NCBI GenBank assembly: GCA_964016885.1
Contig: OZ024740.1
Coordinates: 67,208,001-67,272,000 of the forward strand
Length of the DNA stretch: 64,000 bases
Reading direction: 5' to 3'
DNA from: Eledone cirrhosa
Lineage: Eukaryota
In this document: positions 1,397 to 61,227 of the stretch, piece by piece
Layout of the letters: each line of letters opens with the position of its first letter
Position numbering within the stretch: the stretch's first letter is position 1
Notes under the pieces: model-generated
What the model saw: only the letters and a program-made list of their open reading frames with translations
Database searches by the model: none
Told to the model about the DNA's origin: nothing
Made by a program: the position numbers and the translations under genes

Positions 1397-1615
1397 TATA
1401 ATAGGAACCAGTAAGACCCCGACAGCTGAGCTCAAGCCGTTTCGACGGCTAATTCTGGACGGCTAATTCTGAGTCCAGAATTAGCCGTCGAAACGGCTTG
1501 AGCTCAGCTGTCGGGGTCTAACTGGTTCCTATTATACCCACTCTACTACCTCAAGTATTGAGTACTTTGGTGCGTTATGGTCCACCTGGTTCCTTACCAC
1601 ATTTCCTTCGTTATA
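1397..1615. mobile_element. Palindromic mini-element A (inverted PLE end with 3' half of a hammerhead, plus tail)
   Basis: Arms 1397-1460 / 1473-1536 are near-perfect reverse complements; GAAA-CGGCT..AGCTG-TC forms stem III and a GUC site; tail 1537-1615; (TA)n on the left. Confidence 0.75.
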
Positions 1616-1619
1616 TTTC

Positions 1620-1684
1620 CTTATTAAAATAACAGATTAACTTTTAAGCAAAGAATCGCTGCTTTCACTGATAACAGGATCTTT
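1620..1684 (-). mobile_element. Solo arm of palindromic family E
   Basis: Matches 32313-32376 (ttattaaaataacagattaa...gcaaagaatc.ctgctttcac...ggatctt). Confidence 0.75.
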
Positions 1685-1860
1685 ATATATATATATATAT
1701 ATATATATATATATATATATATATATATATATATATATATATATATATATATATATATATATATATATATATATATATATATATATATATATATATATAT
1801 ATATATATATATATATATATATATATATATATATATATATATATATATATATATATATAT
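1685..1860. repeat. (TA)n microsatellite, one of many (also 1316-1400, 4929-5081, 5441-5780, 6340-6465, 47604-47680, 51468-51604, 56634-56720, 63927-64000)
   Basis: Directly visible. Confidence 0.98.
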
Positions 1861-1910
1861 AAATATGTATATATATATACACGAAACATACTATGTATAT
1901 ATATATATAT

Positions 1911-57292: not shown

Positions 57293-59839
57293 TCAAGTTA
57301 TAAATTGGGTGTTGAGTTCTAGTCTATTATTGATTGGTGGTTGTGTTTTGTCTATAATTAGTGCTTCCTTAATTCTAAGATTGCCGAGGTTTCTTTCCTT
57401 AGTTTCTATCCTAACTGTTATGGTTTTGTCTGTGTTTTTGCATTTAACTAGGTGTTTCTTAAATGAGGTGTTCTTTTATTCTTATGTGGAGTGGTCTGGT
57501 GGTGCTACCTACGTAGAAGTTTTTGCATTTGTCACACTCTAGTCTGTATACGACGTAAGCCTGGTGGCATAGGTCTGTGTCGTTGATGGGGCAGTTGGCT
57601 AGTCTGCAGCAGTTGTCATGTCTGGTGGAGTGCCTTTTGGATAGCTGTCCGCGTAGAGTAGGACCTGAATGGGCCAGTTGGATATCTAGTCCCTCTCGTC
57701 TGATAGCTCAGCGGATGGCTGTTGTTGTTTCTTCACTGAAGTGTGGGAGCTTCAGGAAGCAAGTGTTAGTGCCTCAGGTGTGGTGTCCTCTGTTCTTTCT
57801 GGCACGGTTTGTGGTGAATGTCGTGTATCCGTTCAATTTGAGTACTTGCAGGAAATGTGTGGTGTGTGTGTCTCGGTCTCTAGCGTCGGTGCATTTGTTC
57901 CGGATACGTGTAGTTCGTTCCTTATGTATCCGAACTTAGCGCCGGCTGGGAGGGCCGATCTGAAATGTACGGCTTTTTTTTATAGAAGCAGGTGTGGATG
58001 TTGCCTTCCTCTGCTACCCTGAGTTGGAAGTCCAGTAGGGATAGGGATCCGCGGTCATCGGGTTGTTCCATGCTTAACTTTATACTGGCGTCCATGCTGG
58101 AGAATGTTGTGTATATTTTATCTGCCTCCTCACGGGATGATGTAAGGATGAGTATGTCATCTACATATCGGGTGAAGAAGGTATGGGAATGGCAGGTGTT
58201 GAGGGCTCGGCATTCTAGCTGGTTCATGTAGTTGATGGCCAGCAGGTCCGATAGGCTGGATCCCATGGGTAATCCTGTTGTCTGGCTGTATGTGTGGTGG
58301 TGGAAGGTGAAGTACGTGTTGTCTACTGTGAAGGACAAAAGCTCGTGTATGTCCGTCGGGTGGAGGCCGTAGCAGTGGATGTCCTCTGCGACCACGCAGT
58401 CCGTCAATAAATCGACAGCTGGATGAGCGGGGACTGTAGTGTAGAAGGAGACAACGTCGAGGCTAAAGGCGTATCTATTTAGTTTAAGTTGTTCTGGTTG
58501 GAGTTGGTGTAGTCTACGTATAACTTCGTCGGAGCTACTGACATGCCCGGGAAAGGCGGAGAGTAGAGGCTTGAGAACCTGGGAGAGGAGCCAGGAAATG
58601 TTGTATAGGGGTCCTTCTATGCTAGAGACGATGGGTCTTATTTGCGTCTTAGTACTATTCTTGTGGGTCTTGATGAGGTGGTAGAAATTGGGCAGTCTGC
58701 TATTTCTAGTGGTGTAGTTGAGCTTAACTTTATTTAGGAGTTGTCTTCTCCTACAGATATCGAACCAGATGGAGTTGGTCTGTTTTTCGATCTGGGCTGC
58801 AGCCATGTCGGGGATCTTTGTATATAATTCATTGTCGCTTAGGTGTTCAAAGGCTAGGTTGTTGTATGTGGCTTGAGAGATGACGCAAAACTTTTTACCT
58901 TTGTCGGATGGTAAGTATACAAGTTCCCTATTCCGTAGGTTCTTCAGGCCGAGTTGTTGTGTCCTGGACAGGTTTGGGGCTATCTTCTTCTGTTTCCGTA
59001 AGATGTTAAATACGGAATGTTTTAGCCTCGAGAGTTTTTCTTCAAGCTCGCTGTTGGGAGGCAGTGGACAGAGTGGGCGTTCCAGTTGGTATATCGGGAA
59101 TCTGGGTTTGTTAGATTCCGTGGTGTTGTTGCCGAGAGTCGATATCTATTTTAGTTGGTAGGCAGCCCGACAGAAATTCGTTTCTATGTCGAGCCATAAT
59201 TTGTCGTCCAGTCTCTGTTTCAATATGAACTTGGGACCCAGGCTGAGGAGGTCTAATTCCTCTCGGGAGAGGGATCCTGTCAAGTCTGTGACGAGGTGTT
59301 TTGCGTCAGGTGTGTTGTTGGTCGGGGCGCCGCTAGGTTCGGTGTTGGTACCGTCTTGTTTGCCTCTGTTGGTGTTTAGAGTTGGGATGTTGTTAAGTCG
59401 CTTGGCCGTGCTGAGTTTGAGAAATTCTTTGCGTTAGACGTATTTTCTCGTAGTCTCGGCGATGGTGGTATGACCTGTCTATAGCGGCGGAGATGACTCT
59501 GGACAGAGGTTCTGGGGTTTCAGCGAGTTGTGGTACAAGGCTGGAAATAGTCCGTATGTGTTGTTGTAGCGTGCGGTGTAGATGTATGAGTTTTCTTAGC
59601 CAGAATGTTTGTATGTAACTAAGTGATCGTTTGAGGCCTGCTGATTTGAAGCATGTAGGTAGGTGCAGATTTTTGATAGTTTTGGGGATGATGTTGTTAT
59701 TCAGCCATCGTTTTAGGAAGTTTATTTGGCAGCCGGCTTTGGCGCGCTTTTCAGATAGCTGGAAGAGTTTCTTTACAGTTGTGAACTGGGCCTGGCTCAG
59801 GCGTAAGGAAAGGAGGAGGTTATAGTTCACTTGAAGCAT
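57293..59839 (-). pseudogene. Frameshifted full-length PLE ORF (N-terminal domain, RT, GIY-YIG)
   Basis: MLQVNYN..FLKRW.NNNIIPK; LGPKF; PSDKGK; FYHLIKTHK..IRPIVS; SLDVVSFYTTVP; GLPMGSSLS; RYVDDIL; VVYRLECDKCKNFYVGSTTRPLHIRIKEH. Confidence 0.92.
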
Positions 59840-60505
59840 TGTGTAATGAGGTATAAACGTTTGTATATGTATAATAAAGTCAAAACAATGCAGGTATGGA
59901 CATAGAATAGAAACACCTAGTTAAATGCAAAAACACAGACAAAACCATAACAGTTAGGATAGAAACTAAGGAAAGAAACCGCGGCAATCTTAGAATTAAG
60001 GAAGCACTAATTATAGACAAAACACAACTACCAATCAATAATAGACTAGAACTCAACACCCAATTTATAACTTGACAGAGCTTCTAGTCCCATATTTACA
60101 CACACCCCACACACACACACGCACAAACGCACGCACACACACACACACACACACACGCTTACAACCCCACTTATTCTCTCTCACACATACACACACAAAA
60201 CCAATTCTAACACGAGATAACATCAATCCCCCACATTTATGTATAGACATATCTTCTCACACTCACACACACACACTCACATACTTACACCTTCAGGCAT
60301 TCTCCCACACACTTAAACAGGCATGTACAAAAAAACAAAAAAAAACAAACAAACAAAAACACAACAAAACCCCTTTTAAAGGGAGACTACTCTTTATCCA
60401 TCTAATCTTAACTCTTTGACATTAGAGATAGAACAGATACTCTATACCATTTCCTGTCAGCATGACTTGGCAAGCTATTTAGAACACTGGATTAACAGCT
60501 TTACT

Positions 60506-60543
60506 TCCCTCTGAAGAAGAGATATTATCTCGAAAATTAAGGA
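60506..60543 (+). ncRNA. Minimal hammerhead in the pLTR (AATT palindromic stem III)
   Basis: tccct CTGAAGA a-gagata-t-tatctc GAAA at TA agga. Confidence 0.6.
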
Positions 60544-60786
60544 CATTTAAATAAATCTAAGGTATAAGGCTAATTGTCAACAATATCTTTTGCATTTGCA
60601 TTCTTTATTCTATGTCCATACCTGCATTGTTTTGGCTTTATTATACATATACAAACGTTTATACCTCATTACACAATGCTTCAAGTGAACTATAACCTCC
60701 TCCATATATATATATATATATATATATATATATATATATATAATATGGAGAAGGAACGCACGAGTTGGAATATATATATATTTATA

Positions 60787-61227
60787 TACGATATTAAATA
60801 AATGGAAACTATATTTATAAAACCATATTTATTTCATTATATATATTTCAGGGATATCATATTAAAAATATGTTATGCCTTCTTCAGACAAAATACAATA
60901 TAAACAGTCTTATAAATAGATAGATTTGACATACCTTTCAACTTCAACTTCCATTTAAAAAGTTGATTTTTAAATGGAAGTTGAAGTTGAAAGGTATGTC
61001 AAATCTATCTATTTATAAGACTGTTTATATTGTATTTTGTCTGAAGAAGGCATAACATATTTTTAATATGATATCCCTGAAATATATATAATGAAATAAA
61101 TATGGTTTTATAAATTTAGTTTCCATTTATTTAATATCGTAAATATACTCCAAATACTTGTTGAGTGCTTTTATATCAGTTATAAATATTTCCTCTTTGT
61201 AACCCAACAATTTAAATAAAACTTTGC
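60787..61227. mobile_element. Palindromic mini-element G with two hammerheads
   Basis: Arms 60787-60961 / 60967-61141 near-perfect; tail 61142-61227; (TA)n flanks. Confidence 0.9.
61033..61098 (+). ncRNA. Type-I hammerhead ribozyme (family G; mirror copy 60830-60895 on minus)
   Basis: tattttgt CTGAAGA agg..catat..atatg..cct GAAA tatata TA atgaaata. Confidence 0.8.

Follow-up and report, generated by a model that had tools for sequence, protein, structure and literature searches.

Penelope-like elements (PLEs) of the Hydra clade carry a bulged hairpin twice in the pLTR/5'UTR. Their insertions end within a few bases on the 5' side of one or the other copy, and each copy is probably an RNA docking site that fixes where the reverse transcriptase (RT) starts. 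On a wider reading, the duplicated RNA hairpin encodes the insertion geometry of an entire Penelope clade, with two RT-endonucleases docked on the two hairpins of one RNA launching two cDNAs from both nicked (TA)n strands, and here we judge the chances to be even. Our literature search found no published description of the hairpin motif or of its duplication.

Results

A hairpin is duplicated at the ends of diverged PLE families

The window is the whole 64,000-nucleotide stretch of Eledone cirrhosa DNA that was analyzed. The Hydra-clade hairpins follow the pattern RCUC-[variable stem]-loop-[stem']-U(U/C/A)-GAGY-RC, with loops of 2 to about 100 nt (Table 1). Hairpin 1 lies directly past the short-arm end and is carried inside the one-sided tail, while hairpin 2 lies directly past the long-arm end and does not occur in tails. 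A preliminary description of the window had listed seven ACTC..GAGT strings past short-arm ends, and all seven are present on the strands given, although the 22.6-kb site was placed one base off. Their position held up as well, with each hairpin starting about 4-14 nt beyond the base where the short inverted arm enters (TA)n. On the other hand, the site at 30667-30676(-) had been mis-paired, since a loop of 2 nt is too small to form and the matching half sits some 30 nt beyond. The hairpin had also been taken to mark the boundary between short and long termini; it does mark the short end, but a second copy marks the long end. The proposal of a cis-acting signal tied to element ends is supported. 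The motif is real and its structure is fuller than first described.

Table 1. Features of the window, with the loci in which hairpin 2 of each family was found
Feature	Position	Strand	Remarks	Hairpin 2
Hairpin 1, family F1540	1540..1563	+	Short arm ends at 1400; tail about 1534-1613	Past long end with Hydra ORF, L339
Inverted pair, 5'-truncated F10321 copies	6466..10314	.	Arms 6466-7883 and 8886-10314; short end 6466	
Hydra-type ORF fragment within F10321 inverted pair	7814-8878	-		
Hammerhead core and stem II, F10321	10216..10270 (end approximate)	+	Pattern match; about 105 nt upstream of hairpin 1	
One-sided tail, F10321	10315..10403	+	Starts immediately ahead of hairpin 1; stops immediately ahead of the hairpin 2 position of full-length copies	
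Hairpin 1, family F10321	10321..10345	+		Past long end in 11 of 12 fetched loci (L239-L250)
Hairpin 1, family F17739, decayed copy	17739..17758	-	Absent from the preliminary list	With start of Hydra-type ORF, L321
Hairpin 1, second F10321 insertion	22599..22623	-	Arms 22631-22940	
Hairpin 1, ORF-less family F23444	23400..23458 (long reading); 23444-23458 (short reading)	-		Past long end in tandem units, e.g. L351
Hairpin 1, family F30683	30637..30676	-	Re-paired; inner stem 6-7 bp	With Hydra ORF, L292 and L323
Hairpin 1, family F32452	32454..32499	+	Absent from the preliminary list	With Hydra ORF, L320
5'-truncated Hydra-clade RT and GIY-YIG ORF, F41561	41561..43561	+	Full-length L081: 813 aa from first Met	
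Hairpin 1, family F47846	47846..47864	-		Shrunk to a 4-bp stem without bulge
Long-loop hairpin 1, young family F41561	51655..51735	-	Long end 51605; a short end 47606; absent from the preliminary list	
Hairpin 1, family F61147	61147..61166	+	Arms 60783-61145; tail to 61228	With Hydra ORF, L290
Further hammerhead cores	Starts 22730, 30788, 47930, 61041	-, -, -, +	Pattern match	

The families had been called unrelated, yet five of the six run on into Hydra-clade ORFs, and motif-bearing families share 28-54% mutual protein identity. The sixth, F23444, is an ORF-less 592-bp tandem unit that retains both hairpin copies; folding favors the long reading of its hairpin 1 (z -3.0), and its copies retain both readings. 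R.RW is present in 9/9 ORF starts examined (with K or R as the next residue in 6), DKT replaces DKG in 7/9 (the remaining two fragments stop or are interrupted before it), and both full ORFs examined (L240 and L081) have the CxCx5C linker and GIY-YIG (Y.G). These traits, together with (TA)n targets, a candidate hammerhead in the pLTR, a one-sided tail and inverted copies truncated at the 5' end, are those of the Hydra clade of EN+ PLEs, in which RW[K/R] and DKT precede a C-terminal GIY-YIG (PMC8557442). Judged by these motifs and their mutual identity, the elements are Hydra-clade PLEs. They differ in size, with units of 3.5-6.7 kb against a Hydra-clade norm under 3 kb, and in their tails of about 70-175 nt, a length equal to the spacing between the two hairpins, against the 30-40 bp that were ascribed to the endonuclease in that paper, where the term 'hairpin' is absent (PMC8557442).

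Hammerhead core patterns lie upstream of hairpin 1 in 5/8 families; F1540 and F32452 have variant or half cores, and F23444 has none. In the Rfam comparison, 16 loci gave no match at gathering score; for the window, all of the 150 of 222 matches listed fell below it, and no hammerhead was among them. Hairpin 1 follows the last hammerhead core marks by 48-88 nt and is preceded by AU-rich bases. We considered hairpin 1 as helix III of the hammerhead and rejected this, since a helix III comes immediately after the GAA core and runs as far as the cleavage triplet, which is not the case for hairpin 1.

The motif recurs across the genome and its stem covaries

The bare string ACTC-N0-25-GAGT is weakly above chance (20 against 12.95 +/- 3.68, with 3/100 shuffles reaching 20), but it is the fuller structure and its position that carry the signal, and we kept this near-chance count out of the evidence. 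The full descriptor gave 80 matches in 864 kb (the window plus six blocks) against 4 in reversed sequence; 72/80 were at tail-like positions, and about 5 were second 5' readings of one site. Genome-wide, hairpin 2 followed by a start codon matched 839 times against 4 in the reversed control. Hairpin 2 was predicted from marine loci and then found past the long end in F10321, F1540, F61147, F30683, F23444, F32452 and F41561, and a model built from marine-metagenome relatives alone recovers 5/7 of the sites first listed. The homologue search returned 118 homologues, the viral contigs searched contained no relatives, and the repeat search of the window was dominated by microsatellites.

The motif is not in every tail. 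Three Neptune- or Poseidon-like families lack it; in the window, it is missing from the Neptune-like (53279-56633) and Poseidon-like (56722-60703) elements. A Poseidon-like junction examined for a duplicated signal, the sole non-Hydra junction compared, has no motif.

Among 50 non-redundant marine hairpins, anchored without requiring pairing, inner positions 1-3 were Watson-Crick in 50/50, 37/50 and 27/43, which 0/10,000 shuffles reached. The marine inner-stem alignment had 96.7% of cells paired and 41 double changes (0/500 shuffles). Both sets of shuffles ignore relatedness. The inner stem thus covaries in marine Hydra relatives, as the preliminary description had suggested checking. In alignment A2 the four basal pairs were fixed by the selection of sequences and are uninformative on basal pairing, but basal-stem double changes are present in this genome. 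Folded alone, several hairpins are weak (z -0.1 to -3.0), and 2/9 folds prefer another structure.

The UTRs that hold the motif barely align, with 1 weak match in 36 pairs of families, so that the motif forms islands inside sequence that is otherwise non-alignable. It had been reasoned that tails from one homologous family would undo the finding; they do belong to one clade, but the motif survives in non-aligning UTRs and covaries, which points to its being kept by selection and not by simple shared descent.

In the marine set, G-U exceeds A-C by 8 to 1 at inner positions 1-3, fitting sense RNA as the pairing strand, whereas inner position 4 has 4 A-C against 2 G-U and the outer basal pair is A-C in a few marine copies. 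The same counts bear on whether the hairpins act as DNA, with the endonuclease recognizing them in cDNA or duplex and trimming about 6 nt away, so that ends would be cuts and not starts. Such trimming would give the same end geometry, the tail has been credited to EN-mediated resolution (PMC8557442), and the D. virilis tail is reported to have been required for EN recognition (PMC11167929). However, the G-U excess and the tolerated U-U favor sense RNA over the cDNA strand, loops of such varied length are ill-suited to a duplex site for a dimer, and a lizard PLE protein initiates internally in vitro (PMC11167929). We therefore regard action at the DNA level as unlikely.

Insertions end at a fixed distance from either hairpin

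Across 8 families, 297/305 TA-joined ends lie just 5' of a hairpin copy, for the most part by 3-9 nt (a count that leaves out F47846 and three subfamily references, as well as F17739, whose TA-rich upstream reference gave 2,491 spurious ends). The least distance from end to hairpin is 2-9 nt in 280 of the 305, and 6 nt fits 219. Genomic 3' ends, our proxy for cDNA starts, thus have a fixed position relative to the hairpins, while hairpin spacing varies from 73-176 nt in this genome to 55-83 nt in marine relatives. Targets are (TA)n, with 1-3 shared bases at most junctions. Looser cases include the short ends of F47846, 8 to about 19 nt from the hairpin, and the marine locus L182, which ends about 16 nt before hairpin 1. 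Among 34 marine loci with enough upstream DNA, 9 had a strict copy there and 9 did not, and some of these had copies at tandem junctions. Loose ends joined to TA occur at the same pair of positions in contigs of three runs (kind unrecorded), a source that cannot reveal RNA ends. The 5' truncation points of arms form loose clusters that often fall within hammerhead stem II and do not converge on one site.

Alternatively, the motif could control expression, as an internal promoter, a start site or an operator of translation ahead of the ORF, and lie near the ends only incidentally. This would suit hairpin 2, about 20-70 nt before the start codon, and an internal promoter has been described in this region of Penelope (PMC2377424). 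We think this improbable as the main role, since it leaves unexplained the fixed end-to-copy distance under a spacing of 55-176 nt and the motif's retention in an ORF-less family; a transcription-start element also fits poorly with a covarying stem, such variable loops and two copies each at a junction. Expression control could nevertheless be a second role.

Of 137 inverted pairs, 135 join a short to a long end, 2 join two short ends and none joins two long ends; because many of the loci were retrieved by queries that included the tail, this count undersamples short+short pairs. This pairing bears on RNA processing, in which the hairpins mark RNA cleavage or termination and yield two RNA 3' ends for ordinary 3'-end target-primed reverse transcription. 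Precise insertion ends would agree with this, and hairpins often direct RNA processing, but free choice from two RNA pools would mix the end classes, and 135/137 pairs use each end once. Moreover, both ends are tens of nt downstream of the predicted hammerhead cut, and the lizard element again argues for internal initiation (PMC11167929), leaving RNA processing, in our view, with a slightly smaller chance than trimming of DNA.

Terminal copies stop before hairpin 2, so the template of a long arm has to derive from a 5'UTR, from a tandem junction or from a circle. The copying direction also decides against a telomerase-type template boundary, which the preliminary description had offered and which would have the hairpin halt copying. 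Although telomerase RT is among the best structural matches of the Hydra protein model, the hairpin is on the 3' side of what is copied, where synthesis would begin and not where it would stop, and long arms run straight through hairpin 1; given sense RNA as template, this geometry essentially refutes a boundary, and we hold it to be highly improbable. Among the options first offered, RT docking or priming fits best.

Discussion

Together, these findings suggest a scheme in which an RT-endonuclease would bind each hairpin on the sense RNA and its GIY-YIG domain would nick both strands of a (TA)n run. Each nicked 3' end may then pair with an AU-rich stretch situated 5' of a hairpin, at about 3-9 nt, and there prime cDNA internally. 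Two cDNAs, one per hairpin, would run 5'-ward and be joined at their truncated ends as inverted arms. Since the arm started at hairpin 2 would copy hairpin 1, the tail would equal the inter-hairpin spacing. Each site would most simply be used once if a single RNA carried two copies of the protein.

In R2 and LINE-1, the nicked target primes cDNA starting at the RNA 3' end, and in L1 twin priming, two primers on one RNA give inversions, with the second primer at variable places. The proposed Hydra scheme shares nicked-target priming and inversions, but both of its starts would be internal and fixed. In telomerase RNA, the template boundary element is a helix that stops synthesis 5' of the template; the Hydra hairpin would likewise be an RNA helix beside the template of an RT with a TERT-like predicted fold, but it lies 3' of the copied region. 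Hepatitis B virus epsilon is also a bulged two-stem RNA hairpin that binds RT and fixes the start of synthesis, as we propose for Hydra. Protein priming in epsilon is templated by the bulge itself, whereas Hydra synthesis would start outside the hairpin from a primer of nicked host DNA, with both hairpin copies acting in one event.

The closest parallel is the PAc Poseidon RT of the lizard Anolis, for which two internal starts bound the tail, RNA 3' of the starts is required, an AT-rich target is cut on both strands and a dimer is predicted (PMC11167929), all of which resemble the proposed Hydra scheme. PAc is a single element with an 'AC-rich stem loop' inside the ORF, and no motif, duplication or covariation was reported (PMC11167929), whereas the Hydra signals are in the 5'UTR with the proposed starts 5' of each hairpin. 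By eye, the Hydra motif is not in the printed PAc template (PMC11167929).

PLEs are the closest transposon relatives of telomerase; on how they choose where to start copying and form one-sided tails and inverted arms, one in vitro study located two PLE starts, but not the signal. What we describe is an RNA element of defined form, some 20 nt long, that is conserved among diverged Hydra families and present once at each end. It can serve as an annotation marker for Hydra element ends and non-autonomous partners, and it makes predictions, namely that moving a hairpin would move an end and that deleting one hairpin would lose one arm class. The constraint on the long-arm template further makes circular-RNA and template-switch ideas testable. 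If two RT-endonucleases do dock on the duplicated hairpin, this would explain the tail and the inverted arms jointly, and the hairpin would be a movable start signal for a telomerase-related RT.

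The hairpin at tail starts in the window and flanking genome

The window (67208001-67272000 of its contig, in a 3.0-Gb genome) is crowded with insertions into (TA)n runs. Many are arranged as inverted pairs, with an additional one-sided tail on one of the two arms. ORF remnants match reverse transcriptase (RT) and GIY-YIG profiles, and motifs distinguish three types of Penelope-like element (PLE): Hydra, Neptune-like, and Poseidon-like (Table). The Neptune and Poseidon labels are presumptive, being taken from motifs rather than from a tree, and the Hydra labels were assigned following the clade description in section 11 of PMC8557442.

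The seven strings reported in a preliminary description as an ACTC-loop-GAGT hairpin at tail starts are all present in the window. The bare four-plus-four pattern occurs near chance (20 vs 12.95 ± 3.68), and it is a fuller motif that is enriched at tail starts. Compared across families, the motif opens with RCUC and closes with GAGY, the latter mostly followed by RC; between them stand an inner stem with 2-7 pairs of variable sequence, its loop, and, on the 3' side, a bulge of two bases, U(U/C/A). This form re-pairs the 30667 site as 30637-30676, allows a short and a long reading of the 23444 site, and adds three more window sites. The four basal-stem pairs of the hairpin recur in many Hydra hammerheads, where helix III reads ACTC-N-GAGT (File S2 of PMC8557442; fetched loci L161, L176, and L191), and the two may share an origin or a protein contact.

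Six genome blocks taken irrespective of content (800 kb, two adjoining the window) gave 864 kb together with the window, in which 73 asymmetric elements with tails of 30-200 nt form 31 clusters. The strict motif was found at the tail start in 11 of the 31 clusters compared to 0.03 expected from shuffles, and the relaxed motif in 14 compared to 2.28. Positional enrichment over shuffled tails, on which the preliminary description had made its proposal depend, is seen. The motif is missing (0/12 elements) from three clusters, two of them Neptune-like and one Poseidon-like. Several other motif-negative clusters either are not true tails or carry no assignment. Across the 864 kb, a descriptor including the RC had 80 matches compared to 4 in reversed sequence, and 72 were at tail-like places. 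Since this descriptor was drawn partly from the families counted, an outside test was needed.

Table. Elements and repeats of the window and related loci
Feature	Window position	Other loci	Basis or remark
Hydra type	7814-8878; 41561-43561		motifs
Neptune-like	around 53.3-56.6 kb		motifs
Poseidon-like	56.7-60.7 kb		motifs
First element's 150-nt tail	1612-1683		80-nt tail with F32452 inverted arm fragment inserted at tail end
Family F41561	41561-47606	L251-L254	very young (125/125 scored matches 99-100% identical); units ~6.7 kb, in tandem arrays; hairpin 2 loop ~100 nt
Two more fold-back families	5082-5441; 10428-10615		one-sided tails of 57-64 nt, without motif
~190-bp tRNA-like dispersed repeat	15627-16820; 20685-21037; 29298-30229; 63030-63173		abundant, probably SINE, often adjoining TA runs
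Hairpins right after a TA run, without arm	1147-1173 (-)	L322, L329, L291	resemble tail-only insertions from very early truncation
Hammerhead-bearing family	15844-15951	block B4 18462-18602	one-base bulge hairpin variant; hairpin lost in window copy
Tandem 310-bp hammerhead-bearing units		L034 ~3567-7127 (block B1 33567-37127); block B6 86508-90134	inverted arrangement, retrozyme-like; only degenerate hairpin, ~10 nt past end

The hairpin covaries in marine relatives

Aligned homologues (54 of 118) were used to fetch 78 marine metagenome loci. Anchors requiring no inner pairing occurred 73 times in sense compared to 6 times in antisense orientation within 36,792 flank bases, with 22 further anchors within 141,643 bases of match ranges (tandem junctions included). 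Among 50 non-redundant marine hairpins (30/59 clusters), inner positions 1-3 were paired far above shuffles; a pair counter gave 96.7% paired with 41 double changes, which 0 of 500 shuffles reached, these controls ignoring relatedness. When applied to the window, a covariance model built from marine hairpins only placed 61141, 1534, 47841, 22594, 32448, and 10315 as its top six, all on the right strands (E 0.0008-0.43), and missed the long-loop sites. Of the six Hydra consensus sequences in File S7 of PMC8557442, inspected by eye, three show the motif clearly, namely Hydra-2_Amil, Hydra-2_Ajap, and Hydra-1_Ajap (two copies ahead of the start codon). Hydra-1_Amil and Hydra-1_Crog show part of it, and none was seen in Hydra-1_Obim.

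ORFs behind the hairpins are 28-54% identical among families, and the UTRs of hairpin-bearing families gave one weak DNA match in 36 pairs. Together, these sequence comparisons indicate one clade, rather than the unrelated families first supposed, with the motif as a conserved island in the UTRs. Both hairpin copies are kept in an ORF-less 592-bp family. In the intact Hydra ORFs of loci L240 and L081, inserts rich in asparagine and threonine lie close to the RT thumb or the linker; these inserts recall the N-rich ones reported in PMC3846280.

Two hairpin copies mark two alternative ends

Marine 5'UTRs with two copies contain 31 adjacent pairs spaced 55-83 nt apart; of the 34 loci whose upstream sequence reaches 145 nt or more, two strict copies are present in 16, one in 9, and none in 9. 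Terminal copies, whether in the same locus or in a sister locus, end 2-4 nt of shared sequence before a hairpin in L144, L145, L149, L152, L157, L158, L160, and L180, while the ends are ambiguous in L168, L179, and L200, and L182 ends ~16 nt off the hairpin.

From the marine loci we predicted a second copy in this genome (hairpin 2, just past the long end and outside the tails, hairpin 1 being just past the short end), which was then found. Of 12 loci retrieved around the longest ORFs of family F10321, 11 contain it, and it follows the long end also in F41561, F61147, F30683, F32452, F56555, F17739, F1540, and F23444; in F47846 the counterpart is reduced to a stem of 4 bp whose basal helix shows a double change. 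Of 305 TA-joined ends from 8 families, 297 fall immediately 5' of one copy or the other, and 7 of the 8 outliers sit in a TA-like stretch of F23444. The hairpin-end distance compatible with most ends is 6 nt (219 ends), and most junctions share 1-3 bases between element and target. TAT or ATA lies 3-10 nt ahead of 13/16 genome and 41/49 marine hairpins, in flanks that are AT-rich anyway. Inverted pairs (n = 137) were short plus long in 135 cases, short plus short in 2 (one nested locus), and long plus long in none, a count in which up to 2 pairs may be double-counted and tail-containing queries undersample short plus short. The feature is real and a property of Hydra-clade PLEs: a bulged hairpin that covaries, is present in duplicate, and is linked to each of the two 3' ends.

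Short fold-back insertions among the copies of F1540, F47846, and F32452 in this genome have inner junctions concentrated 56-77 nt before hairpin 1, which places them within the hammerhead (core or stem II) and 5' of its cleavage site.

A possible start signal for reverse transcription

Since RT reads RNA 3' to 5', a hairpin 3' of each end would sit where it could retain the enzyme at the point of initiation rather than where it could halt copying. The use of each site exactly once per event would be explained most simply if a single RNA templates two cDNAs, primed from the two strands of a nicked, self-complementary (TA)n run. An arm started at hairpin 2 would copy hairpin 1, which would explain why the motif was first noticed only at tail starts. 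Priming and the use of strands are inferred here, as are RT binding and protein stoichiometry at the hairpins. Hairpin 2 is missing from terminal copies, so that a template switch, a circle, or a tandem transcript would be required to copy the full length; tandem arrays do occur, and circles have been proposed in PMC4209133. A structural model of a Hydra protein (P0012, pLDDT 91.9) has telomerase RT among its best structural matches and carries no information on the RNA-binding part. We consider docking of RT at the hairpins reasonably probable.

A Poseidon element with two internal starts bounding its tail, in an AC-rich stem loop, is described in PMC11167929, and neither the motif nor its duplication was found in the portions examined. 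The available portions of PMC8557442, PMC3846280, PMC4209133, PMC2377424, PMC5737381, and bioRxiv 10.64898/2026.07.22.740005 contain no description of the hairpin, and full-text literature searches, whose reach stops short of subscription papers and Repbase notes, returned none. Altogether, the hairpin is probably a cis-acting RT start signal, which would open the origin of the PLE tail and of the inverted arms to direct tests.
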